Of a stretch of 64,000 nt of DNA, positions 29,629 through 62,149 are shown piece after piece. This DNA is from an uncultured Gemmatimonadales bacterium (GTDB lineage Bacteria; Gemmatimonadota; Gemmatimonadetes; Longimicrobiales; RSA9). Numbering within the stretch: position 1 is the stretch's first letter; every line of letters starts with the position of its first letter. The notes under the pieces are model-generated. The model did no database searches, was not told where the DNA came from, and saw only the letters and a program-made list of their open reading frames with translations. Made by a program: the position numbers and the translations under genes. The stretch is from assembly GCA_963798085.1 (NCBI GenBank), contig CAWCRS010000001.1, forward strand, positions 420,522-484,521, written 5' to 3'.

Positions 29629-29635
29629 GAAAGCG

Positions 29636-31731: not shown

Positions 31732-31755
31732 GGCAAACAAGCATTGTACCAAATC

Positions 31756-33654: not shown

Positions 33655-33660
33655 GCCGGT

Positions 33661-34285: not shown

Positions 34286-34366
34286 ATCTCGCAGCTCTTG
34301 ACGCACGCCGCTTGCCGGTGATTGGCCGTGTTCGTTAACAGTCCCCGCACTCAATGTCGGCAACCC

Positions 34367-34882: not shown

Positions 34883-34975
34883 ACGACCGCTCCCCTGACG
34901 GACGCTGCCAGAACTGTCGGACCACGTCCGGTATCAGCGTTCCGGTAGATGCTGCAGCGATTTCCGGCACCCAAT

Positions 34976-35066
34976 GTCTAACGAACCCGGTGAAGCTGAC
35001 GGGGGTTGGCGGGTAGATAAATGCCTCGGCGCCTAGACCCCGCAGCTTACCTCTGTAGCGTTATGC
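34976..35066 (+). repeat. attC (cassette F copy 2)
   Basis: Same hairpin as 33268; R' GTTATGC. Confidence 0.9.
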
Positions 35067-35182
35067 ATCCTCGCTCGTCGCCGGGATTTCTCAGCCGACG
35101 CTGGGGCCTTTACCGAATCTCCCACGCCGGCACCCAACGTGGACCGGTGGGTAGGAGAGGGCACCTGTCGCAGGAGAATAGC

Positions 35183-35407
35183 ATGCCGTCAACAGCAAAC
35201 GTTGTCCATAGCGACCCCGAGATCCTTGGTGGGACACCGGTCTTCGTCGGCACGCGCGTACCCGTTCAATCGCTCTTCGACTACCTGGAGGGCGGCGAGA
35301 CTCTGGATGAGTTTCTCCGCCAATTTCCATCCGTGAGGCGCGAACAGGCGTTGATCGCCCTCGAACTCGCACGCGATTCGCTCTTGGGCCTTGCGCGTAC
35401 TGCTTGA
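35183..35407 (+). CDS. DUF433 antitoxin (cassette D copy 2)
   Basis: Same protein as 31038. Confidence 0.9.
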   Translation: MPSTANVVHSDPEILGGTPVFVGTRVPVQSLFDYLEGGETLDEFLRQFPSVRREQALIALELARDSLLGLARTA

Positions 35408-35711
35408 CGAAAACATGCCCGTCGGTCTCGCGGCCGAGTTCTCGGGCCACGCTGTTGAGTCGGTGGTTGGCTTGGGTTGGGCGGGCATCAGGAACGGCGA
35501 GCTTCTTCGCCGTGCAACAGGCCGCTTTGACGCGCTGGTCACCATGGACCGGAATCTGGAGTTCCAACAGCCGGTCGCCCGTCAACCGTTCGGTGTCGTG
35601 GTTGTTCACGCTCCATCGAATCGATTGCTGCATTTGTTGCCGCTCGTCTCGGAAATCAACCGAGCTCTCGTCGGGATCGGCCCGGGCGCGCTTCGACATG
35701 TGGGTGGGTGA
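35391..35711 (+). CDS. DUF5615 PIN-like toxin (cassette D copy 2)
   Basis: Two amino-acid differences from copy 1. Confidence 0.85.
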   Translation: MRVLLDENMPVGLAAEFSGHAVESVVGLGWAGIRNGELLRRATGRFDALVTMDRNLEFQQPVARQPFGVVVVHAPSNRLLHLLPLVSEINRALVGIGPGALRHVGG

Positions 35712-35754
35712 GCACCGCGGCGCCGCACGATTGCCGGCCAGCCATTTTCCGGAT

Positions 35755-35876
35755 GCATAACAGGCGGCTGAAGCTGACGCGCTGGCATGTTCAGCCGACA
35801 CGCTCTCCGCGTCAGAATGCCGCCCCGAAGCGGACCGCGCCTTCAGGGCGCGCAGCTTACCTAAATCGCGTTAGCC
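35755..35876 (+). repeat. attC (cassette D copy 2)
   Basis: GCATAAC...GTTAGCC. Confidence 0.9.
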
Positions 35877-35942
35877 AGCAATTCAGCCACGTCGGTGCAG
35901 TACAGTCGCGCCGCATTCCCATTCATCCTGAGATCAACGAGG

Positions 35943-37130
35943 ATGCGCTACCACCACACGCGGGCCACGCTCCGGTATCGCCATGTCCGCGCCCTGACAG
36001 TCCTCGTCACTGCGACGCTTATCGGTCTCTCAGCCGTGGCGCGCGCCCAGCAATCCCGGCCTGCGTTCCCGCCCGGAATCATCGTCCGAATTGACAGTCT
36101 CGCGCAGGCGCAACTCGCCCTCGATGGCGTCGGCGGCATGACCATCGGCATCGTGACGGAGGCGGGCCTCGCCTGGACAAACAGCTATGGGTACGCCGAC
36201 ATGGCCCGGCACACGCCCGCGTCGCGTGAGACGGTGTATCGTATCGGCTCAATCACGAAGCAGTTTACCGCGATCATGCTGCGGCAACTGGTTTCACGGC
36301 ACGTCGTTCGGATGTCGGATGCTGCCGACCGATACCTGCCGGCGCTCGACTCATTGCCGGACGCAGGAATTCGCGCGCATCGCATTACGCTCCTCCAACT
36401 CGCGACGATGACGTCTGGTCTGGCGCAAGAGCCGGACGATGAGGAGCGCTATACGCAGGGCCGGCTCGACCGCTGGGAGCAGAGCGTTGTGGCCGCGCTA
36501 CGGCATACGAAGCTCGACGCCGAGCCAGGCGCAGCTTGGGATTACTCGAACATCGGCTACGCCGCGCTCGGCTTAGCGCTGGAACGGGCCGCCAGGGTAC
36601 CATACATCGACTACGTGCGCGAGCAGATCCTGATGCCGCTCGGGATGACTCACACAGGATTCGTCCTCGACTCAGCAATGCGCGGTCAATTGGCAACGGG
36701 ATACGCGATGGGTCACGGCATCGTTGACACGACGCAGCCTCGCCGCGAGCTCACCGGGCGTGGCTACAAGGTACCCAACGGCGGACTGTTTTCAACCGTC
36801 GATGACTTGGCGGCATTCGTTCGCTTCGAGATGGGGTATGGTCCGGATCGCGTCCTGCCACGGGCTGAGGTTGCGCGACACTTTGCAGCGCTGACCTACG
36901 CTACGCCCGACCTGTCGTCCGGATATGGCGTCGGGCTTCACGCCATTCGCCATGGGTCGATCGTGGCGCTCGGCCATCCCGGCTCGGTTGCGGGATATCT
37001 CTCGGCCGCGTACTTCGACCCGGCGACGCACACCGGTGCCATTGTGCTGCGCAACGTCGATGATCCACACTTCGATGTGCTCGGGCTCTGTCTCCAGGTC
37101 TTGGAGCTCGTGTCTGCCGCACGGAAGTGA
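35943..37130 (+). CDS. Serine hydrolase, beta-lactamase/AmpC-like family, secreted (cassette H)
   Basis: GSITKQF (SxxK), YSNIGY (YxN), GHPGS; signal peptide. Confidence 0.88.
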   Translation: MRYHHTRATLRYRHVRALTVLVTATLIGLSAVARAQQSRPAFPPGIIVRIDSLAQAQLALDGVGGMTIGIVTEAGLAWTNSYGYADMARHTPASRETVYRIGSITKQFTAIMLRQLVSRHVVRMSDAADRYLPALDSLPDAGIRAHRITLLQLATMTSGLAQEPDDEERYTQGRLDRWEQSVVAALRHTKLDAEPGAAWDYSNIGYAALGLALERAARVPYIDYVREQILMPLGMTHTGFVLDSAMRGQLATGYAMGHGIVDTTQPRRELTGRGYKVPNGGLFSTVDDLAAFVRFEMGYGPDRVLPRAEVARHFAALTYATPDLSSGYGVGLHAIRHGSIVALGHPGSVAGYLSAAYFDPATHTGAIVLRNVDDPHFDVLGLCLQVLELVSAARK

Positions 37131-37160
37131 GCAGCACGTTCCTGGCGCCTTCGCGCTGCT

Positions 37161-37258
37161 GGCTAACGAACGCTGCACCTGACAAGCGAGCTATGGAAGC
37201 AACGCCTGCGGCGTTGCATTTTATGGGATTCGCTTGCAAGTGAACTTGGGCGTTATGC
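37161..37258 (+). repeat. attC (cassette H)
   Basis: GGCTAAC...GCTGCACCTGACAAGCG...CGCTTGCAAGTGAAC...GTTATGC. Confidence 0.9.
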
Positions 37259-37463
37259 TGCGGTTAGACGCACGTCGGCCGTTGCGCGACTACGACCGCG
37301 TTCCAACTCGATGGGTGCTTCCGGTGGCAGTAACTCGGAGCCTGCGTCGGAAACAGCGATCTGGTCCTGGCCCGTTTTCCGACCGCCCCAGATCGAGTCG
37401 ACATCCAGATTGGGGCTGATTAGCTTGCCTGTGGTGTGATCGGAAAATGAACGCCGAGGACTC

Positions 37464-37694
37464 ATGCGAAACGAGTTCACCGCCGTATTCGAGCACGACC
37501 AGGACTGGGTGGTTGCGTACTGTCCGGAGGTCCCTGGAGCGAACGGCCAGGGTCGGACGAAGGACGAGGCACGTTCAAGTCTCATCGACGCCATCGTTCT
37601 GATCCTCGAGGACCGGCGCGAGGATGGGCTGCGTGGCGTTCCTGAGGATGCGGAACGCGAAACGATTACTGTCAACATCCGCGGCGCTGCGTAG
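37464..37694 (+). CDS. hicB: HicB-like antitoxin (cassette A copy 2)
   Basis: Same protein as 28322. Confidence 0.85.
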   Translation: MRNEFTAVFEHDQDWVVAYCPEVPGANGQGRTKDEARSSLIDAIVLILEDRREDGLRGVPEDAERETITVNIRGAA

Positions 37695-37709
37695 ACAAGG
37701 CGTCCGTCC

Positions 37710-37898
37710 GTGAAGCGGAGTGCCCTGCTGAAGCACCTGAGGCTTCACGGCTGCGTTCTGAAGCGCGAAGGACGATCTCACTCCCTTTGGCTGAATCCCG
37801 TCACCGGTGCCGTGGAAGCGGTGCCACGTCACACCGAAATCTCGAACCTGCTTGCGCGCAAGATCTGCCCAAACCTGTCCATTCCAGAGATCGGCTGA
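37710..37898 (+). CDS. hicA: HicA toxin (cassette A copy 2)
   Basis: R-to-P change near the C-terminus versus copy 1. Confidence 0.88.
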   Translation: MKRSALLKHLRLHGCVLKREGRSHSLWLNPVTGAVEAVPRHTEISNLLARKICPNLSIPEIG

Positions 37899-37955
37899 GC
37901 ACTCTTTGGCTTGCCGCAAGGCGGAGCGCGGACGAGAGCGTTACTCGGGTCCGCA

Positions 37956-38077
37956 GCATAACAGGCGGGTGAAGCTGTCGCGCAACGGCTGTCGGCGCAT
38001 CCCGCAATGAAGTGCAAAAGCCAAGCTGGCGAGTAGCGCCTGCCAGCAGCGCGCAGCTTACCCACATCGCGTTATGC
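37956..38077 (+). repeat. attC (cassette A copy 2)
   Basis: GCATAAC...GTTATGC. Confidence 0.92.
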
Positions 38078-38140
38078 CGCGTACCAACATCGAAATCATG
38101 GCACTCATGTTCGACGCAACCATTCCGTATCCCGTGCGCC

Positions 38141-38659
38141 GTGAGATACGATTCTAAGATTGCTTTGCTCGCGGATATCGAGCGCGAATTCGCTGCCCTG
38201 AACGCGGTCCTCGATCAGATCCCGTTTGAGCAATACCTCCAATCCGGGGTTTGGGGAGATAACTGGAACGTTCGAGACCTGGTCGCACACCTCTTCGAAT
38301 GGCAGCAACTATTCCTGGGCTGGTTCGATGCCGGAGCTCGAGGTCTCACTCCCGAAATACCCGCGGCGGGATTTCGGTATCGTGAGATACCACAACTGAA
38401 TCGGAATATCCAGCTGCGATACGCCAGTTGTGAGCCGCGCCAGATTCGGCAAATGTTGGAATCCTCGCACCAACAGCTCTTGGCATTGGCCGCGTCTCTG
38501 ACTCAAGAACAGCTGCTGCAACCAGGAGCCTTCGCGTGGACGAAGCGAAATGCCCTGGTGACGTACTTGGGGCCGAATACGTCGAGTCATTACCGATTCG
38601 CGCTCAAGGTGTTGAAGCGCTGGTTGCGCAGGCGTTCGGCCCCCGAACCCGCAGCATAA
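38141..38659 (+). CDS. ClbS/DfsB-family (DUF1706) protein (cassette I)
   Basis: WNVRDLVAHLFEWQQLFLGW...NTSSHY; stop codon in attC. Confidence 0.8.
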   Translation: MRYDSKIALLADIEREFAALNAVLDQIPFEQYLQSGVWGDNWNVRDLVAHLFEWQQLFLGWFDAGARGLTPEIPAAGFRYREIPQLNRNIQLRYASCEPRQIRQMLESSHQQLLALAASLTQEQLLQPGAFAWTKRNALVTYLGPNTSSHYRFALKVLKRWLRRRSAPEPAA

Positions 38660-38745
38660 CCTTCGCTGAAGCTGACGCGGCATGAAAAACACTCGTGCAT
38701 TCAACCACTGCGTGATGCCGCGTAGCTTGGCTTCATACGTTATGC
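38654..38745 (+). repeat. attC (cassette I)
   Basis: GCATAAC...GCTGAAGCTGACGCGGCAT...ATGCCGCGTAGCTTGGC...GTTATGC. Confidence 0.88.
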
Positions 38746-38759
38746 AACACGCGGATCGT

Positions 38760-39221
38760 TCAGGGCCGAGAGTTGGGCGACCTCTTGGGCTTGCGCACCG
38801 ATTTCGCGGTGCGTGGTCTGCCGCCCTTCAAACCATTGAGGCGAGCGGCACGCGCCTTGGCGGGGCTGCTAGCCCGCCCCATAACGCGGGGAGCCCATTC
38901 CCGAAGGTTGAGTGCATCGGCCACGAGCCCGGTGAGGGAAGCGTCGACGCCGAGATCATCCCAGTGAAGTCCGTCGCCGCTGGGTGAAACGCGCACTGCA
39001 GAGAGCTGCTCCGCGCTGCTTCCCTTCAGGCCCGGTACCCGGTCCGGCGGGAGCCCGAAGAGGAACCCACTTCGCAACTGCACGAGGAGAATGCCCATTC
39101 GCCGATCATAGCGAACTGCGCGTGCACGCGGCTCGATCCGGTCGGCCTCACGCGCTTCTCGAACGGCAGTCTTGTTCTGCCGCTCGAATCCGGCTTCGCT
39201 GATCCGGACGGGCTTAGCCAT
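38760..39221 (-). CDS. DUF2442 protein (cassette J, reverse-oriented)
   Basis: VRVSPSGDGLHWDDLGVD...SPAKARAARLNGLKGGRPR. Confidence 0.85.
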   Translation of the reverse strand: MAKPVRISEAGFERQNKTAVREAREADRIEPRARAVRYDRRMGILLVQLRSGFLFGLPPDRVPGLKGSSAEQLSAVRVSPSGDGLHWDDLGVDASLTGLVADALNLREWAPRVMGRASSPAKARAARLNGLKGGRPRTAKSVRKPKRSPNSRP

Positions 39222-39464
39222 GGAGCTTCCTCCATTCTGCAAGAAATCGCTGCTGATGCACTTCCACAATGCGAAGCGCTTCACGAGCGTCGGCCGCGCT
39301 CATGTGATGATTCAACCAGAGCGACGGCGGCGTCTCCGGGTCACCGATACGCACCACGACTTCACCACCGCGTGTACATTCGACATGACTTGCGGCGGCT
39401 GGTGCTCGCGCGGCGGAGCGCAGATAAAGACGCGCAACGCACCCTCCTCGTGAATCGTGATCAT
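39214..39464 (-). pseudogene. DUF4160 protein, frameshifted (cassette J)
   Basis: MITIHEEGALRVFI...EHQPP, then HVE...FLAEWRKLHG in another frame. Confidence 0.7.
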
Positions 39465-39527
39465 TGGGAACGGTAAACCCACCGCTAGGTTCTGGCAAGC
39501 CGCAACCGTTCGCGCCGATCGAGTGTT

Positions 39528-39650
39528 GCATAACAGCACGGTGAAGCTGCCAGGCAGATCGTTCCCAGCGGCAGGGGCCGGGTTGGTATCTCGCGGCGTC
39601 GTGCGTTTGGTGCTTGGATGGGCCTGCAGCTTACCGCAAATGCGTTATGC
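39528..39650 (+). repeat. attC (cassette J)
   Basis: GCATAAC...GGTGAAGC...GCTTACC...GTTATGC. Confidence 0.9.
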
Positions 39651-39764
39651 ATCCTCGCTCGTCGCCGGGATTTCAGCCGACGCTGGGGCCTTTACCGAAT
39701 CTCCCACGCCGGCACCCAACGTGGACCGGTGGGTAGGAGAGGGCACCTGTCGCAGGAGAATAGC

Positions 39765-39989
39765 ATGCCGTCAACAGCAAACGTTGTCCATAGCGACCCC
39801 GAGATCCTTGGTGGGACACCGGTCTTCGTCGGCACGCGCGTACCCGTTCAATCGCTCTTCGACTACCTGGAGGGCGGCGAGACTCTGGATGAGTTTCTCC
39901 GCCAATTTCCATCCGTGAGGCGCGAACAGGCGTTGATCGCCCTCGAACTCGCACGCGATTCGCTCTTGGGCCTTGCGCGTACTGCTTGA
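39765..39989 (+). CDS. DUF433 antitoxin (cassette D copy 3)
   Basis: Same protein as 31038. Confidence 0.9.
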   Translation: MPSTANVVHSDPEILGGTPVFVGTRVPVQSLFDYLEGGETLDEFLRQFPSVRREQALIALELARDSLLGLARTA

Positions 39990-40293
39990 CGAAAACATGC
40001 CCGTCGGTCTCGCGGCCGAGTTCTCGGGCCACGCTGTTGAGTCGGTGGTTGGCTTGGGTTGGGCAGGCATCAGGAACGGCGAGCTTCTTCGCCGTGCAAC
40101 AGGCCGCTTTGACGCGCTGGTCACCATGGACCGGAATCTGGAGTTCCAACAGCCGGTCGCCCGTCAACCGTTCGGTGTCGTGGTTGTTCACGCTCCATCG
40201 AATCGATTGCTGCATTTGTTGCCGCTCGTCTCGGAAATCAACCGAGCTCTCGTCGGGATCGGCCCGGGCGAGCTTCGACATGTGGGTGGGTGA
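39973..40293 (+). CDS. DUF5615 PIN-like toxin (cassette D copy 3)
   Basis: Near-identical to copies 1 and 2. Confidence 0.85.
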   Translation: MRVLLDENMPVGLAAEFSGHAVESVVGLGWAGIRNGELLRRATGRFDALVTMDRNLEFQQPVARQPFGVVVVHAPSNRLLHLLPLVSEINRALVGIGPGELRHVGG

Positions 40294-40336
40294 GCACCGC
40301 GGCGCTGCACGATTGCCGGCCAGCCATTTTCCGGAT

Positions 40337-40458
40337 GCGTAACAGGCGGCTGAAGCTGACGCGCTGGCATGTTCAGCCGACACGCTCTCCGCGTCAGAAT
40401 GCCGCCCCGAAGCGGACCGCGCCTTCAGGGCGCGCAGCTTACCCAAATCGCGTTAGGC
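40337..40458 (+). repeat. attC (cassette D copy 3)
   Basis: GCGTAAC variant R''...GTTAGGC. Confidence 0.88.
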
Positions 40459-40760
40459 CGGACAAGCCGCGGGTAGCGCTCCGCCTGCTACCGGGTTGGG
40501 ATTGTTCCGCTGGCCGGCCGTGGAGGCGTCAACGTCAGGATGAGTCGTGAGTTGGCGCATGATAGCGATCCGCTTCTGACAGACTGGCAATGACAAGCGC
40601 CGAGCCCAAGGCTGGCAGCGATCGCGCGCATGCACCGCCCGGCCAGCGGCAGTCGCGAATGCTCCTGCCACGGAACGGGCCGGCCCGTACTCACTCCGGC
40701 CCTCTCGGCTCGATCGGCGCAAGCTTTGTCCCCTCCCGGTCAAGCGAGTAGATTGCCGGT

Positions 40761-41045
40761 GTGAGCTACGAGTTCGAGTGGGACTCCGCGAAAGCCGAAA
40801 GCAATCTGAAGAAGCACAGCGTCTCGTTCGAAGAGGCTGTGACCGTCTTCGCCGACCCGCTCTCGCTCAACATGCCGGACCCGGCACACTCTGCGGATGA
40901 GCAGCGCTTCCTCGTTCTCGGGATGTCGTCGAGGCACCGGCTTCTGGTAGTCGCCTACGCGGAACGACCGCCGCGAACACGCATCATCAGCGCACGCGAA
41001 GCCACTCGGCGCGAACGACATGACTACGAAGAAAACGAAGAGTAG
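40761..41045 (+). CDS. brnT: BrnT toxin (cassette G copy 2)
   Basis: One amino-acid difference from 33661. Confidence 0.92.
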   Translation: MSYEFEWDSAKAESNLKKHSVSFEEAVTVFADPLSLNMPDPAHSADEQRFLVLGMSSRHRLLVVAYAERPPRTRIISAREATRRERHDYEENEE

Positions 41046-41271
41046 AGAGCGACAGGATCCGGACCGCGATTCGCTCCAGCCGGACTACGACTTCTCCAAG
41101 GCGGTCCGCGGAACCACCGCCACAAGATATGCGGAGGGAACGAACGTCGTCGTTCTCGACCCTGAGCTTCGCGAACTCTTTCCCACCTCGGAAGCGGTCA
41201 ATGAGGCCCTTCGAGAGCTCGCGGCGATCGCCAAGCGTGCCAGCCGCCTCAAACGGCGGCGTTCGGCCTAA
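41020..41271 (+). CDS. BrnA-like antitoxin (cassette G copy 2)
   Basis: Same protein as 33920. Confidence 0.75.
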   Translation: MTTKKTKSRERQDPDRDSLQPDYDFSKAVRGTTATRYAEGTNVVVLDPELRELFPTSEAVNEALRELAAIAKRASRLKRRRSA

Positions 41272-41383
41272 CAGCTGGGTGAAGCTGTCGCGCGCGCCGG
41301 TCTGGAGTGACGCGCCGGGATTGACCAGGATTGACCAGCGCATCGCACCCGGCAAAGCGCCGCTTACCCACATCGCGTTAGGC
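41266..41383 (+). repeat. attC (cassette G copy 2); 2-bp deletion next to L'
   Basis: GCGCCGCTTACC versus GCGCGCAGCTTACC in copy 1. Confidence 0.85.
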
Positions 41384-41413
41384 GACTTGTCATCTTCGTC
41401 CAGAAGGACATGC

Positions 41414-42406
41414 ATGGGAATTCTTGGCTCCCTCCGACCGTTCGTGTGGCTAAGCGCTGCGGCGACAGCCGCCGCCGCAAATCAGGCCCAGCGTGTCGAT
41501 GTAGACGCTATCGCGATAGCGACCCTTCAACGTGAGGCCCAAGCGCGATCTCCCGCCGGTCGATCAGGCGCCGCTCTCGCCTATGATGCCATGCGTAAGG
41601 AGATGGTACTGTTTGGCGGCATCGCATCGGATGGTAAGAGCTTCCCAAGCGATCTGTGGGCGTGGAACGGACGCTCGTGGCGTCAGCTGATTCCGTCAGA
41701 CGGTCTCGCGCCCAGCGGCCGGGCATTTCACAATTTGGTGTTCGATGCTGCACGCCAGCGCATGGTCATGTTCGGCGGGCGGCGCGACGGCATACTTAGC
41801 GACATGTGGGAGTGGGACGGCGTCCGGTGGCACCAGATAGTCAGCGATACTTTGACGCTGTTGCACGCTGCTGCGACGTACGACCCAGCGCGTCGTCGCG
41901 TCGTGGCCTTCGGCGGGCTCAACAATAGTGGCCCCCGGCGAGACGTGATTGAATGGGACGGTCGCAAATGGAATACCCGGGGTAGCGCTGGACCCGAGGT
42001 CGGGCTGGTATTTCCTGCCGTGCTGGCCGCCTCGCCCACCGGCGATCTCACCATTGTGAACATGCAATCGGGACGATCATCTGATTCCATTCCGGCGTTG
42101 ACGTGGGAGTTGAACGGAAGCGCCTGGAGGCGTCGCGAAATTGGCCCCGCACTGACCAGCTTGCAACCCGCCGTGAGCGCGCCTGACGGCACGATATACA
42201 TCTATCAGAGAGCGGCTGTTTGGCTCTCCACGCCGCTGGTGCACACGCGGAAGCCGGATGGCACCTGGGTCACCGTGTCACCGTCGTTGCGGCCCGAGGG
42301 GAATAGTGTTCCTGCCGTTGCGTATGATTCCGATCGCCGGCGTTTCGTTCTTTACAGCACTGATCTTTGGGAGTGGAATGGCGCCCGTTGGGCGAAGCGG
42401 CCATGA
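41414..42406 (+). CDS. Kelch-like beta-propeller protein (cassette C copy 2)
   Basis: Three amino-acid differences from 29787. Confidence 0.8.
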   Translation: MGILGSLRPFVWLSAAATAAAANQAQRVDVDAIAIATLQREAQARSPAGRSGAALAYDAMRKEMVLFGGIASDGKSFPSDLWAWNGRSWRQLIPSDGLAPSGRAFHNLVFDAARQRMVMFGGRRDGILSDMWEWDGVRWHQIVSDTLTLLHAAATYDPARRRVVAFGGLNNSGPRRDVIEWDGRKWNTRGSAGPEVGLVFPAVLAASPTGDLTIVNMQSGRSSDSIPALTWELNGSAWRRREIGPALTSLQPAVSAPDGTIYIYQRAAVWLSTPLVHTRKPDGTWVTVSPSLRPEGNSVPAVAYDSDRRRFVLYSTDLWEWNGARWAKRP

Positions 42407-42441
42407 TGGCTGGGAAGAGGAATCGGCTGCGCAGTATCGTC

Positions 42442-42550
42442 GCCTAACCAGCGCTTGCTGCTGCCAGTTCGCGGCGGCCGGCCGAAGGAGTACCCTTGAA
42501 TAGGGAAGCGGGGCCGCCGCGCCCCGCAGCAGAAGCGCGCTCAGTTAGAC
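42442..42550 (+). repeat. attC (cassette C copy 2)
   Basis: GCCTAAC...GTTAGAC. Confidence 0.9.
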
Positions 42551-42789
42551 CACCAAGCCCGTTCACGGCGGTGGCCTTTGTTCGGGCAGCAGCAATCACC
42601 CGATGGCTCTGCGGCGAACGCTCGGGGAACAACACTGGATTTGTCGGCGGCTGCAGCGTCACGCCGGGAGGCGATACGCTGATTCCCGGCCATCAACGAT
42701 CATCGACGGCAGTCGTTTGGCGCAGCTGCTGAGCGATGGCGCGCCAATGGATACGCCAACTCGCCCAGAGGCTGTCGCAGTGGCGCTGA

Positions 42790-43039
42790 ATGCCTGAGAT
42801 CTCGCGCTTCTTGGGTATCGTACTCCTTCGATCACGATCCGCCACACTTCCATGCGCACTACGCCGGCGCTGAAGCTCAATTCCGCATTCAGCCTCCTGG
42901 CGTGCTCGACGGCGATCTTCCACCGCGTGCCTTGGCGCTGGTGATCGAGTGGGCTAGACTTCACGAAGCAGAGCTATTCGAGAACTGGCGTCGCCTTCAT
43001 TCGGATCAACCGCCACGGCGGATTGCACCGTTGGAGTAG
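42790..43039 (+). pseudogene. DUF4160 protein, frameshifted (cassette K)
   Basis: MPEISRFLGIV, then DHDPPHFHAHY...VIEWARLHEAELFENW...IAPLE in a shifted frame. Confidence 0.8.
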
Positions 43040-43041
43040 GT

Positions 43042-43335
43042 ATGAATCCCAGAGTTGCAGACGTGCGGGTGGAGCGTGGCTACGTCGTGCGGCTGGCGTT
43101 CACGGATGGATCGGAAGGCACGCTGGATCTCAGCCCCTGGATCCAGGGGCGCACCGGCGTGTTCGCGGCACTCCACGAACCCGGCTTCTTCGCCCAGGTC
43201 GCAGTGGATCAGGATGCCGGCACGATTGTCTGGCCCAACGGAGCGGATCTCGATCCGGATGTGCTCTACGATGCCACACACGGCACCGGCGTAACGCCTT
43301 CAAGCATTGAGCGCGGTGGTCTAACAGGCGGGTGA
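43042..43335 (+). CDS. DUF2442 protein (cassette K)
   Basis: LAFTDGSEG.LDL...GTIVWPNGADLDPDVLY. Confidence 0.85.
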   Translation: MNPRVADVRVERGYVVRLAFTDGSEGTLDLSPWIQGRTGVFAALHEPGFFAQVAVDQDAGTIVWPNGADLDPDVLYDATHGTGVTPSSIERGGLTGG

Positions 43336-43440
43336 AGCTGTCGCGCGGGCGCCCTGCACGTGCTCGCGCCACCAGGAGCGAAGATCCACGGCCTCAAGCG
43401 CGCTTGGAAAGGCGCGCAGCGTACCCACGGAGCGTTAGAC
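43319..43440 (+). repeat. attC (cassette K)
   Basis: GTCTAAC...GGGTGAAGC...GCGTACCC...GTTAGAC. Confidence 0.9.
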
Positions 43441-43454
43441 GTCGACGACCGTTG

Positions 43455-43984
43455 ATGATGAACAGAGATCAATTGGCTGCCATCAGCGCATCTGTGGCCA
43501 CGCTTCGCGGCCAGTCTACACTTCGATCGGGCGCGATGGCGACGGCGTACTCCGACAAGTACCAGTTTGAATCCGACCCGACGCTGCTGCGGACCATTGC
43601 GGCGGAGCTCGCGTCGCTGGTGCCTGCCGAAACTGAACTGCTTGCCGGCCTCGAGTTGGGCGGCGTACCTATCGCAACTGCACTCGCCTTGCATACGGGC
43701 CTTCCACTGGCGTTCGTCCGAAAGCACGGCAAGGACGACGGAACGTGTCGGCGTGCCGAAGGGGCTGACGTGGCCGGGCGGGCGTTACCTGCTAATGGTC
43801 GAGGATGTCATCACATCAGGCGGTCAAGTTGTCGGTCTCGACCGCGGCCCTTCGTGAACTGGGCGCTGTCGTGAGCGATGCGGTCTGTGTGATTGACCGC
43901 GAAGCAGGAGGAGCCGCCGCGCTTGCAGCAGAAGGAACCATGTTGCGGAGTCTCTTTGCCAAGTCGGAGCTGATTGGTGCCTGA
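43455..43984 (+). pseudogene. pyrE: Orotate phosphoribosyltransferase-like gene in cassette L; two frameshifts
   Basis: TLRSG...DKY, AGLELGGVP, FVRK, VEDVITSGG (PRPP motif), VCVIDR. Confidence 0.8.
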
Positions 43985-44020
43985 GTGCCCCGCCTGGATA
44001 TCAAGGGCGCACCACCCGAC

Positions 44021-44130
44021 GTCTAACGAGGCGCTGCTGCTCGCGGGCGTGGGTAGGGAAGCGGCCGCTCGCTGCGCTCGCGGGCCGCAATTATGATAGG
44101 ACGCCGCAGCAGAGCGCCGCGGCGTCAGGC
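44021..44130 (+). repeat. attC (cassette L) with non-canonical R' GTCAGGC
   Basis: GTCTAAC...GCTGCTGCTCGCGG...CCGCAGCAGAGC...GTCAGGC. Confidence 0.8.
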
Positions 44131-53884: not shown

Positions 53885-54463
53885 ATCCGGGCGAACGGCG
53901 CGTCGTTCCATGTGGCGTGCGCCGGGAACGGGCCGATGCTGCTCCTGCTGAACGGGTGGCCGGAGTTCTGGCTGGCCTGGGAACCGGTGATGGAGCGGCT
54001 CGCCCATCGCTACACCCTTGTCGCACCCGATCTCGCCCGCTACCGCAGGATCGAGCGCCCGCGCTACGGCTACTACCTCGACCACCTGACCGATGCCTGG
54101 TCCACGGTGGCGATCGGCCTGGGCCTCGGCCTCTCCCCTTACATGCTGTTATCCGTCGGCCTCGCCATTGTCATCGCCTATCTCGTGCTCAGCATCAACG
54201 TGTACCTCGAGACCCACGTGTTCGGCGAGTTCGGCCTCGGCTACGGCAAGCTGGGCCCCAGCGAGGCGAGGATCCTGCTGTTCCTGCTCAACCTGCTGGC
54301 CCTGTTCCGGGGACCGCTGCGGTTCCGCCTGTTCGGCGTGGGCATGACCGTGTTCGACATTGGCGGCATGGCCGCGGCCCTCGGCATGTTCGGGTTATTG
54401 GCCGCTCGGGCGGTTCGCAATCTCCGCGGTCTCGCGCAGCTGGAGCCGGCGAGGCGGGGATAG
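53885..54463 (+). pseudogene. Chimera: alpha/beta-hydrolase N-terminus fused near 54030 to a CDP-alcohol phosphatidyltransferase C-terminus
   Basis: GPMLLLLNGWPEFW...LVAPDL joined to ARYRRIERPRYGYYLDHLTD...GPSEARI. Confidence 0.7.
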
Positions 54464-54665
54464 GGGCGGGTTACTGCGGGACAACGGCGGGTCATGGGCG
54501 GGGGCGGGGAATTGGGCGGGCGAGGGCGGTCAATACCTCTTGTCGGGTGGGTTACGGAGAGGTTGCAGGGAACGGCGGTGCTGTGGCATGTTGGCGAGGA
54601 TCTACGCGAGAACGGATTCAATGCTGTTGGGCGAGGGCGGGCGGTGATCGGCGGCGTGCTCGCTG

Positions 54666-54696
54666 GTTGACGACGTTCACAGATTTGGTGTTATCT
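54666..54696 (+). other. Putative attI-like entry site of array 2
   Basis: GTTGACGACGTTCAC-9bp-G|TTATCT; no attC body upstream; the core pairs with the end of cassette N. Confidence 0.5.
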
Positions 54697-54835
54697 GAAA
54701 TACCGCGATCACATTGAGCGCGCAGCGGCTGGGGCACATAGAGCGCCACTAGTCAGTCTTGCTTTGAGCATGTTATGCTATCAGCCCGCCATTCGCATTG
54801 TAAGGCTGGCGAACCCCCGGTAGGTGAGGTGATCC

Positions 54836-55567
54836 GTGCCATTATACGCGATCCTTCTGCTCACGGCAGCGATGTTTATTGGCACCGGTCTGGTTTTCGG
54901 GCTGGGACTGCGGAAGCTCTACAAGCGGGAGGGGGCGCGCCTTCGCGCGCTGGCACAAACGGTTGCTCTTGCCGGGACTTGGATTGTTGATCCCGGTGGT
55001 CGGCGTTTATTCCGCAATCGTTGCCGGCATGAGCTTGCAGGCTGGTGAGCTTTTCCTGATCGGCGCCATGCTGACCGGGGAGGCGATCTGCGTCGTGAAA
55101 CGGCTCCGCGGAAAAGCGCGACGCGGTTCCCCACTGCAGATTGGTCGGATTCCGGAGCGCAAAGCCGATCGGGTTGGCCCGGTTGTTGGAGTCCTTGCGG
55201 CTGGCCTGTATGTCATGGCCATGGTCGTAGACAAGTCCGTCAGTGTGGTAGGAATCGCGCGTTTGATGGCTATCGTCGGGACCGAGCGGCCGCGGTGCTC
55301 ACCGGACCGATCAGGCACTAGCTCGACGAGGGCGGCGTTCAGCAGTTCGCGGGGCTCGTGCCATGGGACCGCTTCGAGTCCTTCCGCTACATTGCTTTCG
55401 AGAGAACCGCCGTATTCTCGTTGCAACTCCGCAGGCCCGGGTGGTTCCGCAAAGCGGTGACCGTGGCAGTGCCGCGCGAAGAAGTGGCCGAGGTGAGTGG
55501 CTGGTTGTCGGAGAGGTTGCCCTGTCTGGAAGTGCAGGATAAGCACATGCTATCCAGTACGACATGA
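54836..55567 (+). pseudogene. Membrane protein, frameshifted (cassette N)
   Basis: TM segments across three frames; C-terminal GLVPWDRFESFRY. Confidence 0.5.
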
Positions 55568-55779
55568 ACGTGGTTCGAGGCAACGCGCAACCCAGGTACA
55601 TCGTCACGAACCTGCCACGCTGCCACGCGTTGTACCGTGGCTCGGGCTTCAGGCGCCTCTTGCGGGCGCCGAAGAAGAGAATCGCAAGATCGGTGTCGAT
55701 ACATTGTGCGGCAGGAAGTGACGGCGCACTACCGAAGCCGCAGGAACGCTGATGCCAAGGCTGCGGCGCGCGGCACTTC

Positions 55780-55925
55780 AGATAACACGTCATTTCACGC
55801 TCGGCGGCCTGGGCGGCCGCCGGCCGCGCAGCGGCCGAGGCGGGCAGCTGGGAAGGGCGCGGACATGCCTGTGCCGCCCTGACGGTCGGCTCCGGCACGT
55901 CGTGAACCACTCAGAAACGTTATGT
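55780..55925 (+). repeat. Atypical attC-like site (family 2)
   Basis: AGATAAC-6-TTTCACGC...GTCGTGAAC-11-GTTATGT. Confidence 0.8.
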
Positions 55926-55976
55926 GCAATAGGTCTCACCGATCCCCATTTTGGAGCGGAAGCGCTCGAACGCTGA

Positions 55977-56877
55977 ATGGTCGCGGTGTATGCAGCGCAT
56001 GAAGGCAACGTGGAGGAGCCTTTGATCACAGTGGATTCCCCAAGCGGCTCACCGCGCTTTCTGTTCATGGACGAATCGTATAGCTCAACGACGACGATCT
56101 CAGCCCTCACCGGCCTTCTGGTGCCGATTCACGTGTATCCCGCTGTGCGCGAACGCTTCTTTGACGTGCTGCATTGGTCGATACGTCCGGCGGACAACGT
56201 GATCGCTCACCCGCCCGAACTACACGCGAAGACGTTTCTCGCCGGGGAGCCCGATGATCGAAAGTTGCATGTCCTTCGACAGATTGCGGATCTAGTCATT
56301 GCGTCGGGAATCGGCATATACCGCGTGGGCTACTACATTACGACGGAGATCAGACAGCGGTTTCCCCTCGATCAAAACATGGAAGGGGCGTGCTGGCTCA
56401 GCATGCTTTTCATGCTTGAAGCTGTCTTGGCACACTCGCCTGTGATTCCGGTCATGGACGGCTTCAATACCGACCGTGTCAGACGGTTCTCTGGTCCCGT
56501 CAAGAGCATGGATGTCATGCGTGCAGCCGGCGCCGAGCAAATGATCAGCGTTCCAAATGCGCAGAACCTGATCGGTGAGGTGTTTTACGCCGATAGCCAA
56601 TACGCGATTCTTACACAGGTGGCGGAATGTTGTAGCCTATCTCCGGTCGACCAAGGACTACGCTGACGATGGGAAACCATTGACCGACTATAGACGACAG
56701 GTTCTGGATGTAGCGCGGACACTTGAGCCTGCGATCGTTCAGGAAGAGGTCATCGCATTCTCCCTCGACGGTCGAGTTCAGGGTCCGCCTCACCGTGAGA
56801 AGAGGTCAACCGGGGGTGCGCTGCGCGGTGCAAGCACAGTCGAGCCTGAAGACCCGCCACACGTTGGCGACGCATGA
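55977..56877 (+). CDS. DUF3800-like protein; frameshift near 56625 (cassette O)
   Basis: FLFMDES, ELHA, DS...LTQVA.VVAY. Confidence 0.6.
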
Positions 56878-56973
56878 AGGATCAGGGCTCAACCAACCAC
56901 ACCTGCGAGGCGGTTGTGACACGCTCTGGAGCGAATCAGCGGCACGGTTAGGCAACCAGGTGAGACCTACTGC

Positions 56974-57136
56974 ACATAACAGTGACATTTCACGCTTCGC
57001 AGCGCCTGGCGGCGCTGCTTGCCATGGCGCGAGCAGGCGCATCATGATACTACAGAGCGTGGCGTCGCGCCATGGACACTTCGCCTGGTCGGCTGTCGCC
57101 GCCCGGCTCGCGTCGTGAACGCACGGAACGTTAGCT
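56974..57136 (+). repeat. Atypical attC-like site (family 2)
   Basis: ACATAAC-7-TTTCACGC...GTCGTGAAC-9-GTTAGCT. Confidence 0.8.
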
Positions 57137-57430
57137 GAAACAACCGGTCCCAACGGCGGCCGGGTACGGCGGCCGATCAACATCGCATCACCGGAACGAC
57201 CCCATTCGCCGGCGCTCTCAAGGTTTTGGGGTATGAGCCTTGCCGCAGCGTGCCGCTGAGTCCAACATTCTGTAGGAGCGCGACTTTGGGCGAGCCCGCA
57301 CCGGTTAGCTTTGCCGGTTACACAAGCTCGGACTCTCGGGGGATTGTCACGTTGACTCGGCTTCTCAGAGTTGGCCCGAAATCACCCAAGAACCTCAAGG
57401 AAGCCAATTGCGTCAAGGAAAGGCAAGCCG

Positions 57431-58584
57431 ATGAACCGAAATCTGGGCGCCGCGAAGGCGGCGAAGAAGGACGAGTTCTACACACAGTACGTCGACATCC
57501 AGAAAGAGGTCGAGGCCTACCTTGAGTTCGATCCCGACACGTTCCGGGGCAAGGTTGTGTACTGCAACTGTGACGATCCGTTCGAGAGCAACTTCTTCAA
57601 GTACTTCGCCGCCAACTTCAACAAGCTTGGCCTGAAGAAGCTCATCACCACCAGCTACGACGGATCTCCCATCGCCGGCCAGGGCACCCTGTTCCCGGAA
57701 TACAACGAGGGGAATGGCAATCGCCAGAAGCCCAAGGCGCTTGCCGTTATCCTCGACCGTGTGAAGGACGAGGACGGAGACGGCGCTGCGAACGTCACCG
57801 ACGTCGAGCTATTCCTCAAGCGAAACAAGGCCGCCCGGAACGCGTTGAGAGGTAACGACAGGTACGCTGGAGGGGATTTCCGCAGCCCCGAGTGCATTGC
57901 GCTCCAGAAAGAGGCCGACATCGTGGTCACCAATCCACCCTTCTCGCTCTTCCGCCAGTACGTCGCCCAATTGATGAAGCAAAAGAAGCGGTTACTCATC
58001 ATCGGCAATCTCAACGCGATTAAATACAAAGTGGTCTTTCCGCACTTTCAGGGCAACAGGCTATGGCTTGGTCCAAGCATAACGGGCGGCGATCGCGAAT
58101 TTCGCGTGCCTGACACCTACCCGCTTAATGCCGCAGGGTGGCGAGTGGATGAGGACGGGACCAAGTTCATCAGAGTCAAAGGCGTCAGGTGGTTCACCAA
58201 CTTGGACCATGGGCGTCGCCACCAGCCCTTGAACCTTATGACCATGGCGGATAATCTCAAATTCAACAAGAAGCTTGCGGGGAGGTCGGCTTACAACCGG
58301 TTCGATAACTACACCGCCATCGAAGTACCATTCACCGATGCCATACCTAGCGACTACGACGGCGTAATGGGCGTCCCGATTAGCTTCCTCGACAAATACT
58401 CGCCGGAACAGTTTGAGATCATCTGGCAGGCAAGCGGCAATACTCGCGCGTCCACCCCAGCAGTGGTCTTGGATCAGATGGGGTATTCGTCCCGATCCTG
58501 ATGATCGCGGCGGCTGTGCGATGTCTAGATGGAAGAAGGATGTACGACAGAATCTTCATTAGACATCGAGCGGCGGCGCAATGA
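57431..58584 (+). CDS. Adenine-specific DNA methyltransferase, EcoRI family; frameshifts near the 3' end (cassette P)
   Basis: [41 protein letters not shown]. Confidence 0.9.
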
Positions 58585-59746
58585 AAACCACCCTAAGAAC
58601 CGACATCACCGTAGCGCGCATTTGCGAAGGGTTTGTGTACAACCAATTGGAGGGGAAAGGATTGTTCGGGCTCGCCGGAAAGCTCACCATCCAGCCGGAG
58701 TACCAGCGCAACTACATCTATGCGGATGGCGGTGGCAAGAAGGAGCAGGCGGTCATCGAATCCCTTCTCAAGGGATATCCGCTTGGATTGATCTATTTCA
58801 ACAAAGTCGCGAAGGATAAGTTCGAAGTGCTGGACGGCCAGCAACGGATCACCAGTATCGGACGATTCATTACGAACAAGTTCGCGATTATGGACAACGG
58901 CAATCCGCAAAATTTCGACAGCCTGCCCGCCGACCAGCAGGAGAAGGTTCGGGACTCGAAGTTGTTGATCTATGAGTGCGAGGGTACGGAAACTGAGATA
59001 AAACAGTGGTTTGAGACCATAAACATCGCAGGTGTGCCGCTCAACGACCAGGAGCTCCTGAACGCAATCTACTCCGGACCATTTGTGACTCTTGCGAAGG
59101 CTGAGTTCAGCAATAGCCAGAACGCGAACGTCCAGAAGTGGAGCGCGTACATCAGAGGCAGTGCGAACCGGCAGAGCTTCCTGGAGCGGGCTCTTGACTG
59201 GGTGAGCAAGGGCGATATCGGCAGCTACATGAGCGCTCATCGTAACAATGGCAACATCAATGAGCTGAGAACCTACTTCAACAGCGTGATCGACTGGGTA
59301 TCGAGCGTCTTCAGGGACGTTGAGAAGGAGATGCAAGGATTGGAGTGGGGCGGCTCTACGAGCAATACCATTCCACGTCCTATGATCCGGCCAACGTATC
59401 CGCGGAGGTCAAGCGCCTTTACGCCGATCCGTACCTCAAGAGCCGTCGGGGCGTCTTCGAATATATTCTCGGTGGCCTTCAGGATACGAAGCTATTGGAT
59501 GTGCGGGTGTTCGACGAAGCGACCAAGCGGTCCGTCTACGCCAAGCAGACCAAGGCTGCAGAAGCCAGCGGCAAGTCCAATTGCCCGCTCTGCGCAGTTG
59601 GCCCTGATGCCAACAAGAGCAGGACATGGAAGTTTAGCGAAATGGACGCGGACCATGTTGCCGCATGGAGCAAGGATGGTGGAAGTTCGGCCAAGAACTG
59701 CCAAATGCTCTGCGTCACCCACAATCGGGCCAAGGGCAATCGGTAA
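58581..59746 (+). CDS. DUF262 (GmrS-like) + HNH endonuclease; frameshift near 59345
   Basis: [24 protein letters not shown]-terminal CPLC...MDADHV..WSKDG....NCQMLC..HNRAKGN. Confidence 0.88.
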
Positions 59747-59874
59747 TCTGGGCGTGCCACAGCCCCGGCAATGGAGAACAAGCCGAAATCGGAGCCGCCG
59801 ATATCACACTCTCTGCAAGGTTGACGATCGCAAACCGCTGCACAAGGGCAGCGCAGCCAGGGCCCGGTTGCATC

Positions 59875-60034
59875 AGCTAACACGCTATCTAACGCGGCGC
59901 GTCGCCTGCGGCGCCGCTGGCCATGGCCCGAGCGGGCGGGTAATTTCGTACGGAGCGCGGTGCTCGGGCCATGGACACTTCGCCTGGTCGGCTACGCCGC
60001 CCGGCTCGCGTCGTTAGCAGCAGAAACGTTAGCC
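59875..60034 (+). repeat. Atypical attC-like site (family 2)
   Basis: AGCTAAC-6-TCTAACGC...GTCGTTAGC-9-GTTAGCC. Confidence 0.8.
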
Positions 60035-60724
60035 GCAATCATTGGAACCGATCGCGCAGCCAAAGCGCGGCGCCCGCTTACAGGACACCATCGCCAGTCC
60101 CTCACGCAGGTAGGCGCGCCCGTATCCGATACCCAGGCGTGTAGCGATCAGGTTTGACTTGCGGCTCCTTGCGGGATCCCGGCCGAGCTCGACGCTCGGC
60201 GCAGGCGGGTTGGGGCGCACCGCGCCCAGGCGCTCGAGGCGGATGCCCCACGGCAACGCGAATCCAACTGCAGGCGGCCCCGTGGTCTCATGCCGACCCA
60301 CCATCGGCGCGCCGGGCCATGGACCCGCCATTTCGAAATCGTAGAGTGTGTGAGAGACCGCCGCCGCTCAATGACGCTCGCGAGCGGCGCCCCTCCCGGC
60401 GGCGGTCTCTCGGACACAACTCTGCTCGATTTCGTCGCATTTCCGCCGCCCACCCGTCGTTGGTAGCTTCATGAGCCAGGCGTGTGGGCGGCTGCATCTG
60501 GTCTCGCGGAGCCCGGGCACCCATCCTTGGCGCGTGGGGCGGTGCGGCGCGACGCGCCTTGCTGGCGTGGCAGCCGCCCGAACAATCACGCAGGTGGTCG
60601 CAAGTCAAACCGGCTCGGTAGCGTGCGCCGCGTATCGGATGCGGGCGCGCGGGGCGAGAGCGGCCCTGGCGTGGTAGGCTTCTGAGCAGGCGCGTGGGCA
60701 GTGCAGGCGGGTTCCAATGACAGC

Positions 60725-60867
60725 GGCTAACACGTCATTTCACGCAGCGCGGCGCTCCGCGCCGCTTGCCGCGCGGGTCGTGAAGGGGCAGATTGGGCCG
60801 GGCGCGGACATCCTGCGCCGTGCTTCGCCCGGCTCCGGAGGCTTCGTGAACAACCGAGACGTTATCT
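60725..60867 (+). repeat. Atypical attC-like site (family 2)
   Basis: GGCTAAC-6-TTTCACGC...TTCGTGAAC-9-GTTATCT. Confidence 0.8.
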
Positions 60868-60993
60868 GAAATGCTTTGCCGTTCGGCGTTGCCTTGGGGC
60901 CTGGCGTGTGACGGGCAGGCTAGTCATGAGTTGCAGCCGAGGCGGTCGCTACGGTACATTTTCAAGGAACGCAACTGGCCACTGGACGCCCGC

Positions 60994-61203
60994 ATGAAGC
61001 CCGAGCCGAACCGTGCCCTCTACATCGAGATTCTGCGCCGGCAGACGCCGGAGCAGCGGCTCAGCAAAGCCCTCGAGCTTGAGCAACTGGTTCGAGAGCT
61101 GTCTCGAGCAGGCGTCAAGAGTCGCAACCCAGGGATGGCGGCCGCGGAGGTGGATCGCGTCGCCGTTGAGCAGATTCTGCGGTGGCGCAGAAAGATCTCC
61201 TGA
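60994..61203 (+). CDS. Small putative antitoxin (Rv0078B/MenA1-like) (cassette R)
   Basis: TPEQRLSKALEL...RAGVKSRNP...EV; overlaps the NTase gene. Confidence 0.6.
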   Translation: MKPEPNRALYIEILRRQTPEQRLSKALELEQLVRELSRAGVKSRNPGMAAAEVDRVAVEQILRWRRKIS

Positions 61204-61748
61204 TCCATACGGTCGAGACCCTCAATACAGCCGGTATCGCCTACATGGTGACCGGGTCCATGGTGACGAGTCTCCAGGGCGAGCCGCGGTCGACGCATGA
61301 CATCGACGTGGTCGTGTCGATCACGGCGCAGGATGTTCCGCAATTGTTATCGGCATTTGAGCGTCCCCGGTTCTACGTGGATGAGGGTGCCGTGCGGGAG
61401 GCGATCCGGTGCGGCGGCATGTTCAACGTGATCGAAGCGGAAGAGGGTGACAAGGTCGATTTCTGGATGCTGCATGATGATCCGTTCGACCAGTCGCGGT
61501 TCCAACGTCGGTACGTGGAGCATGTGTTCGGAATCAACATGGTGGTCTCAAGACCGGAAGACACGATTCTGGCGAAATTACGCTGGGCGAAACTCTCCGG
61601 TGGCAGTGGGCGCCACATTCAGGACGTCGTGGGCGTGTATGAAGTGCAGGGACCGCGACTGGATCATAGCTACTTGGAGGGCTGGGCCGTACGCCTCGGC
61701 GTAACCGAGCTTCTGGCGAAGGTGAAGGAGCAGGCGGGAAGCGAATAG
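61182..61748 (+). CDS. Nucleotidyltransferase, putative toxin (MenT1/DUF6036-like)
   Basis: YMVTGS...GEPRSTHDIDVVV, PEDTILAKL, RHIQDV. Confidence 0.75.
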   Translation: MAQKDLLIHTVETLNTAGIAYMVTGSMVTSLQGEPRSTHDIDVVVSITAQDVPQLLSAFERPRFYVDEGAVREAIRCGGMFNVIEAEEGDKVDFWMLHDDPFDQSRFQRRYVEHVFGINMVVSRPEDTILAKLRWAKLSGGSGRHIQDVVGVYEVQGPRLDHSYLEGWAVRLGVTELLAKVKEQAGSE

Positions 61749-61819
61749 ACGGTCATTGCTTCCCGGGCGTGCGGCTGTATTCGGCAACATGGGTTGGTCC
61801 GGCAACGGCAAAGCACTTC

Positions 61820-61960
61820 AGATAACACGCTAGTTGCCGCAGGCCGCGCTGGCGCGCGGCCGCCGCCGCAGCTGGCCTAAGCGGACACGCAAGGAAGGGC
61901 GGCGGACATGCCTGCGCCGCAAGCGGCTTCGGCACGTCGGCAACCGCCATCACGTTAAAT
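61820..61960 (+). repeat. Atypical attC-like site (family 2)
   Basis: AGATAAC-6-GTTGCCGC...GTCGGCAAC-9-GTTAAAT. Confidence 0.8.
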
Positions 61961-62149
61961 GACATTGAATTTGGCGCATGCGCCTGCCTGGCTTCCTTGT
62001 CACATGGGCGCGACGTTGGCCAGCACAACCCGGGCATCGAGCAGTCCAGAAGCCAACTTCGTTGCCCAGGCGCCACCCTTGCGGTGACGGGAACCAGGGT
62101 TTACTATGCTTAGGAATCTGAGGCTGCGGCCGTCCCACTACCCTCGGAG

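Follow-up and report, generated by a model that had tools for sequence, protein, structure and literature searches.

Long cassette-end stems with a fixed wobble mark a putative second cassette system in a Gemmatimonadota genome carrying a classical integron

The ends of integron cassettes usually pair over 9–11 bases, and the first extrahelical base of the folded site is the main strand selector, as given in the available text of Bouvier 2009 (PMC2727003). According to the accessible sections of PMC7790495, the I2 insertion of the integrase docks the extrahelical bases and blocks the second exchange, and I2 and extrahelical bases are held to let integrases recombine folded single strands safely. 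Judging from its available passages, the published system nearest to the one considered here is rAID-1 (Ross et al., bioRxiv 10.1101/471110); its criterion is an XerD-like recombinase more than 44% identical to BF9343_RS08045. In the present study we analyzed array 2, a cassette array located in a stretch of 64,000 nucleotides (further referred to as the window) from an uncultured Gemmatimonadales bacterium (assembly GCA_963798085.1, contig CAWCRS010000001.1, positions 420,522 to 484,521), where the two ends of each complete cassette are complementary far beyond their core.

From the comparison of sequences we consider it probable that this genome has a second, integron-like cassette system and that array 2 is one of its satellite arrays; a recombinase encoded on another contig (C12) would be the likely enzyme of the system and the folded bottom strand its site. 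This recombinase is probably simpler than that of classical integrons, one of which is present in the same genome. The feature itself is genuine; it far exceeds chance and is unusual for integrons. The anatomy of the ends, the way they covary, and the joint occurrence of the wobble with a flat L box and a short recombinase are all direct observations.

Cassette ends of array 2 and of its family

A preliminary description of the window had listed end pairings for cassettes N to R of array 2, and an independent recount returned the same values (Table 1). All five cassettes have A at position 11 facing C placed 11 bases from the 3′ end, which corresponds to T·G on the bottom strand. A profile built from the att sites gave 66 matches in the window's own genome (labelled G000), on contigs C1, C2, C3, C7, C10 and C12. 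These matches define 54 spans and 51 distinct cassette starts genome-wide, designated here as family 2; in a few spans an overlooked site has brought together ends that belong to different cassettes, and these spans were kept in the counts. Position 11 reads A/G in 49 of the 51 distinct cassettes, the two exceptions being a shifted arm and a doubtful start.

Each arm is composed of two parts. Positions 1–11 form a family motif, with 1–4, 8 and 11 fixed in sequence and position 10 frequently mismatched (23 of 51 cassettes), and positions 12–21 are private to the cassette, as illustrated by 39 different 8-mers (positions 12–19) among 41 well-paired cassettes. Each side conserves its own base of position 11, A or C, so that pairing with a neighbour's arm gives the wobble as well; it is a fixed motif on both sides and not a private pair, and only the outer stem is private.

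At positions 12–18 identity with the cassette's own end amounts to 0.80–0.88, compared to 0.25–0.38 with the ends of other cassettes (51 cassettes), and it drops to background by position 23. At positions 12–20 own-partner matches fill 365 of 459 cells, whereas 20,000 permutations averaged 143 and never exceeded 185; covariation within the same range is about 1 bit on the diagonal up to position 18 and 0.04–0.33 off the diagonal. In homologous cassettes double compensatory changes keep the pairing at positions 5–7, 9 and 12 while position 11 stays fixed, and single uncompensated changes are also seen. Further bottom-strand wobbles elsewhere in the stem were too few to reveal any bias.

The private stem could alternatively be a footprint of cassette birth, with one end copied from the other during capture into an att frame, by a template switch or by fill-in on a hairpin, and with pairing as a by-product or a secondarily selected trait. 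This is the main rival explanation; we regard it as rather unlikely, although it is compatible with a satellite array of a second system and the two are not exclusive. Copying would account for the nearly all-different 8-mers and for the low number of mismatches at positions 12–16 of the 41 well-paired cassettes (3 in 205 cells, 1 of them a wobble), next to 12 of 205 at positions 5–9 and 19 of 41 at position 10, a count which is partly circular because the 41 were chosen on these positions. Against it, compensatory changes in the arms of cassettes with alike bodies would need ongoing selection or repeated copying, short motifs recur weakly just past the stem in unrelated cassettes (7 of 41 versus up to 5 for 6-mers of the body), and relatives have many more imperfect outer pairs (30 of 210).

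Cargo genes were also considered as the source of the 3′ arm and turned out to be uninformative, with a long frame ending in the core in only 4 of 54 spans. A family-2 cassette found at locus L010 (261–1184, minus strand) encodes an APH(6)-like aminoglycoside/hydroxyurea kinase, and the core-site TAA closes its reading frame; the tail at the core site falls beyond its Pfam domain. Cassettes of 196–252 bp with no long reading frame occur in G000 at C12 7530–6917 (head of the C12 array) and C2 426677, and ten or more times at locus L125 of genome G269; they are possibly promoter cassettes or empty frames. Duplicated family-2 cassettes occur with different neighbours. In the spans at C2 442854 and 401343 of G000 two different cassettes each contain an insert of at least 2 kb; the two inserts are 99% alike and probably represent an insertion element.

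The inner site between family-2 cassettes has 121–149 bases; its L box is short, its spacer asymmetric and its top branched, and it keeps its structure rather than its sequence across genomes. It shares with attC both boxes, R and L, the GTT/AAC core and the folded bottom strand. The L box is unbulged in 46 of 54 own sites.

A short recombinase and its relatives

A search with TIGR02249 found no recombinase beside window array 2 or the C3 arrays. The tyrosine recombinase of C12 is followed about 350 bp after its stop by the first family-2 cassette. It aligns with TIGR02249 only at positions 2–179 and 235–313, thus missing 180–234, and its score (220 bits) is below the cut-off of 265. The enzyme keeps the catalytic residues R, K, H, R, H and Y, each of which is conserved to 90% or more across 72 aligned proteins; in its homologues the R-to-H spacing is 88–95, compared to 129–130 in IntI, and the catalytic domain is about 40 residues shorter. 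In the tree the C12 recombinase clusters with IntI, apart from the other recombinases of the genome, and groups with Gemmatimonadota loci, which would place the host in that phylum. IntI takes a weakly supported position (83/89) within the short enzymes of Gemmatimonadota, and the tree carried a flag for base-composition bias; we therefore claim no order of descent between IntI and short enzymes. A compact N-terminal domain is predicted at residues 1–64; its fold gave no clear match (best Z 5.4 for a single-sequence model with pLDDT 61, Atlas scores below 0.9), and the UvsW N-terminus reached only Z 4.0 at rank 21; the lack of a match carries no weight as evidence here. Array 2 is not an integron array of the usual kind, a point missed in the preliminary description; its sites go with a recombinase devoid of I2 on another contig and mostly have no extrahelical base.

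The closest solved folds of the C12 enzyme are archaeal XerA (Z 22.7) and IntI (Z 20.0). This would agree with the arms being double-stranded symmetric sites of a Xer-like enzyme, with no hairpin and with position 11 as a left-right sequence preference, and so would the six positions fixed in sequence. We find this improbable: positions 12–20 vary yet covary, which a sequence-reading protein would not require, and it is structure, not sequence, that the inner site conserves across genomes.

The array-2 leader has an 82% copy over 250 bp at C3 700777–700534 of G000, likewise directly 5′ of a family-2 cassette start. Two satellite arrays (window array 2, with the leader at 54443–54691, and C3) have it in common, and it is unalignable to the leader beside the C12 recombinase. 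Among 300 other genomes of the order no full-length match was obtained, only short ones at chance level. Family-2 leaders are weakly folded and not conserved between taxa, and a structured leader, looked for at family-2 arrays, was not seen.

Strong matches to the C12 enzyme are present in 33 of 401 genomes of the phylum and IntI in 61 of 301 genomes of the order (the latter tally and the 300-genome leader search include the genomes G096 and G409, flagged as unpublished, on which no other claim depends). We compared 17 short-enzyme and 20 IntI loci on long contigs, of which 6 and 8, respectively, gave countable cassettes; the genomes are kin and not independent. With extended regions, 63 of 68 distinct cassettes next to the short enzyme (6 genomes) have the wobble, versus 1 of 78 next to IntI (8 genomes), and L boxes are bulged in 3 of 63 versus 52 of 56 sites. 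Two genomes hold both systems, with the wobble in 21/21 cassettes of the short enzyme and 0/12 of IntI in G355, and in 3/5 and 0/5, respectively, in G301. The median stem end is at position 21 here, 16 in relatives and 12 in IntI arrays; the stem of about 22 bp is a trait of this lineage.

Array 1 of the window serves as an internal control. The genome holds one full IntI, which is co-oriented with the array-1 cassettes. All 16 detected sites of this array have the classical bulge, pairing comes to an end near 10–12, and A/G stands at position 11 in 1 of 11 cassettes. The short pairing noticed earlier for the first array-1 cassettes extends to 12 distinct ones, with about 9–13 bases and no fixed mismatch. 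Alternatively, the array-1 IntI might act in trans on the array-2 sites, these being ordinary attC with a long R stem and the C12 enzyme a bystander. Their core motifs and bottom-strand fold are indeed attC-like, IntI is present 27 kb upstream, and IntI1 recombination survives removal of extrahelical bases (available text of Bouvier 2009, PMC2727003). We nonetheless give this explanation little credence, as the att-profile search detected no family-2 site within array 1, family 2 has no cassette DNA in common with arrays 1 or 3, the two designs are separated almost completely in 14 genome-array sets, and genome G379 has an array of this kind with no IntI match (assembly 90% or better).

Wobble-marked cassette pairs were found downstream of a homologue in 13 of 80 named loci, representing Gemmatimonadota, Spirochaetota, Bacillota, Bacteroidota and Bipolaricaulota; many homologue contigs stop a few hundred bases past the recombinase gene. 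Of 73 loci (the 80 minus 4 IS91-linked and 3 short ones), 25 have a matching cassette start no farther than 350 bp from the stop, where about 3 would be expected. Homologues of about 285–350 residues stand directly 5′ of IS91-family transposases at L133, L137–L140, L168, L060, L090, L091 and L093, and G223 has six near-identical copies of such a homologue, one of them upstream of canonical bulged attC sites. The C12 enzyme precedes cassettes and not an IS91-family transposase, and the IS91-linked homologues group apart in the tree. On a Chryseobacterium plasmid (L167) an IS110 transposase and a group II intron break up the wobble-marked array that follows the short recombinase. The phage collection gave one unannotated match.

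On plasmid pHH1107 (L165:6880–8089) the tigecycline-resistance gene tet(X3) occupies a 1,210-bp unit with cassette-type ends, directly after the homologue TnpF. The unit has the position-11 mark and pairing at positions 8–10 and 12–16, with mismatches at 5–7, and the att site that follows is cut short; the same gene order is found at L166. The position of tet(X3) in a marked unit after TnpF suggests that the system may be a route of resistance-gene capture.

Folding, proposed mechanism and content of the window

In the models the circle form folds better on the bottom than on the top strand in 44 of 51 cassettes and better than the array form in 49 of 51. Median pairing probabilities of the crossover box for 48 family-2 cassettes were 0.95 (bottom) and 0.71 (top) in the circle and 0.08 and 0.03 in the array; the corresponding values for 12 array-1 cassettes were 0.97, 0.96, 0.76 and 0.34. 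The whole bottom strand of cassette R is predicted to fold with a 23-bp terminal clamp. Since whole-cassette ends can pair across 900 bases, the stem could also act in RNA, closing each cassette transcript for processing or stability. This seems highly improbable: the wobble strand is opposite to most cargo genes, so the mRNA would carry A·C, the stem starts exactly at the DNA crossover, and Rfam gave no match.

Contigs of one soil metagenome contain an R-type att end joined at the crossover to the start of cassette Q or of another cassette. Such joints show changed neighbours at the crossover and not a circle; contigs cannot separate a two-cassette circle from another cassette order, and several other att ends are 86–98% alike to that of R. 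Among the sequencing runs no RNA run was listed as holding the cassettes and one soil run had a small share. Of the earlier proposal of a long stem and structure-based recognition, the stem stands, being specific to own ends, covarying and better paired in the circle model, and so does the wobble, conserved across phyla and absent from IntI arrays; reading of the distortion by the protein and formation of the circle are still conjectural.

According to the mechanism we propose for the second cassette system, the recombination site would be the folded bottom strand, with an unbulged L box of 6–8 bp, an unpaired spacer and crossover at G|TT. Beyond the crossover would come the conserved 11-base arm, which ends in the G·T wobble, followed by an outer stem of about 10 bp that is free in sequence. 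The binding arm of Xer recombinases is 11 bp long, and the wobble would lie at the outer edge of the binding arm. It would pair on the bottom strand and leave an A·C mismatch on the top one, which may help to choose strand and orientation. With I2 and the extrahelical base missing together, we infer that the wobble helps to mark the strand, standing in for the extrahelical base that I2 reads in IntI. The private outer stem would form only when the cassette's own ends meet, in an excised circle or a looped-out single strand, so that circles would be good substrates and array sites poor ones, favouring storage and re-insertion. A possible role of the N-terminal domain is binding to the outer stem or to its fork.

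Several observations weigh against the assignment to a second system and against this mechanism. The C12 enzyme is on another contig, and its putative link to window array 2 is through shared att sequence. Own sites scoring as bulged number 8 of 54, several low-scoring and window site O among them. The modelled strand bias is modest (the circle values of 0.95 and 0.71), the zero for A·C on the top strand is built into the energy model, and circles of the IntI array 1 also fold better than the array form (0.97 vs. 0.76). Only 6 of the 17 short-recombinase loci gave countable cassettes, 5 of them do not head arrays but stand in front of IS91-family transposases, and 48 of 73 homologue loci have no such cassette start nearby. 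Weak Pfam matches to HARP were obtained in 23 of 72 members (best E 4e-4) and none in the C12 protein. Finally, the proposal does not explain how a lethal second strand exchange is avoided when I2 is lacking.

Features of the window and the C12 recombinase gene are collected in Table 1. Among the cargo of array 2 are restriction-modification, a toxin-antitoxin pair (probable) and genes of unknown kind. The restriction-modification pair, of type II, belongs to cassette P, and the split of its restriction gene over two frames is possibly a sequencing error. The end of cassette S, for which a sequence had been predicted, is absent from the window because contig C1 stops at window position 64000; no matching 3′ end was found in the rest of the assembly or, by an exact pattern, in metagenome contigs. 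The GC content of the array is 57–68%, and the widest range obtained is 54–68%.

Array 1 contains many near-identical duplicated cassettes (two to three copies), several of which are probable toxin-antitoxin pairs. A decayed attC fragment of array-1 type and a partial cassette copy lie outside it, at window positions 53284–53325 and 44660–44705. Array 3 (C2 2225–5120 of G000, L011) has bulged attC of another family, cassettes of 175–434 bp and 8–9 bases of end pairing; its contig gave no integrase match.

Table 1. Location of array features in the window and of the candidate recombinase gene
Feature	Position	Strand	Remarks
Canonical IntI heading array 1	26811..27914	+	410 bits with TIGR02249, above cut-off; serves as within-genome control and is not the candidate enzyme of array 2
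Array 1	28110..44027	+	canonical attC, bulged L box, short end pairing, no fixed wobble
Leader before first cassette (presumed attI-like)	54443..54689	+	no adjoining recombinase gene
Cassette N 5′ arm	54690..54707	+	A at 54700; 16/18 paired
Cassette N 3′ arm	55769..55786	+	C at 55776
Inner att site after N	55787..55918	+	132 nt; L box unbulged, top branched
Cassette O 5′ arm	55919..55940	+	A at 55929; 21/22 paired
Cassette O 3′ arm	56959..56980	+	C at 56970
Inner att site after O	56981..57129	+	149 nt; L-box register ambiguous by score
Cassette P 5′ arm	57130..57151	+	A at 57140; 19/22 paired
Cargo of cassette P	57371..59746	+	genes of a type II adenine methyltransferase and, split over two frames, of a GmrSD/HNH restriction enzyme
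Cassette P 3′ arm	59860..59881	+	C at 59871
Inner att site after P	59882..60027	+	146 nt
Cassette Q 5′ arm	60028..60049	+	A at 60038; 20/22 paired
Cassette Q 3′ arm	60710..60731	+	C at 60721
Inner att site after Q	60732..60860	+	129 nt
Cassette R 5′ arm	60861..60883	+	A at 60871; 22/23 paired
Cargo of cassette R	60961..61748	+	probable antitoxin and nucleotidyltransferase pair; weak matches below cut-off
Cassette R 3′ arm	61804..61826	+	C at 61816
Inner att site after R	61827..61953	+	127 nt
Cassette S 5′ arm	61954..61975	+	A at 61964; 3′ end past contig end
Tyrosine recombinase lacking the IntI insertion (I2)	G000:C12 about 9120-7885	minus	upstream of family-2 cassettes, same strand

Comparison with known systems

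The system shares with canonical integrons, sedentary chromosomal ones included, the co-oriented arrays, the GTT/AAC crossover core, the L and R boxes and the better folding of the bottom strand, as well as defence and toxin-antitoxin cargo, duplicated cassettes and enzyme-less satellite arrays (clusters of attC sites lacking an integron integrase, CALINs). It differs in an enzyme devoid of I2 and provided with an extra N-terminal domain, in L boxes mostly with no extrahelical base, in the fixed G·T at position 11, and in end pairing of 15–22 bases versus 12–13 measured in IntI arrays. It is integron-like in its presumed working and departs from the integron definition in three respects, namely I2, extrahelical base and stem length.

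The 'Integron-like' subgroup of tyrosine recombinases is described by Smyshlyaev 2021 (PMC8138268), where the insertion is deemed essential for integron function, and in the parts of that paper available to us no arrays are tied to short members. CTXphi and other integrative mobile elements exploiting Xer (IMEXs) also rely on a folded single strand recombined by an enzyme devoid of I2; according to the accessible sections of PMC7790495 they hijack the host XerCD at dif, whereas here a dedicated enzyme heads arrays of dozens of cassettes. In the literature searched, which mostly excluded subscription journals and did not cover the motif figure and supplements of rAID-1, we found no description of a long stem with a fixed wobble, and the available text of Cury 2016 (PMC4889954) and of PMC4909258 does not mention a long stem.

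Here both I2 and the extrahelical bases are missing, with a different fixed asymmetry in their place, and the presence of both designs in one genome provides a ready paired comparison for strand choice and IntI evolution. From the available part of PMC4889954 we infer that searches depending on IntI domains would miss the short enzymes and label their arrays as orphan; A/G at position 11 together with a flat L box makes a simple detection signature. A wider view, which we offer tentatively, is that of hairpin cassette capture independent of I2: widespread short relatives of IntI might run large arrays by means of the G·T wobble, the outer stem and an accessory fork-binding domain, in a state from which IntI may have arisen, and they might coexist with IntI with no shared cassettes, have carried tet(X3) as a cassette and keep in the private stems a record of cassette making.

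With rAID-1, as its available passages describe it, the array of C12 agrees in having an XerD-family recombinase followed by at least two co-directional genes with a repeated intergenic sequence reminiscent of integrons, and homologues of the C12 enzyme also occur in Bacteroidota. The same passages give no site structure, crossover, stem or wobble, and the comparison is by description and not by enzyme sequence. rAID-1 is described from Bacteroidales, with GC of at most 41% and immunity-gene cargo, whereas the present system belongs to Gemmatimonadota of higher GC and has other cargo. The present case contributes a host of high GC in which both systems occur, a paired control from two further genomes, and the observation that the L-box bulge is lost together with I2.

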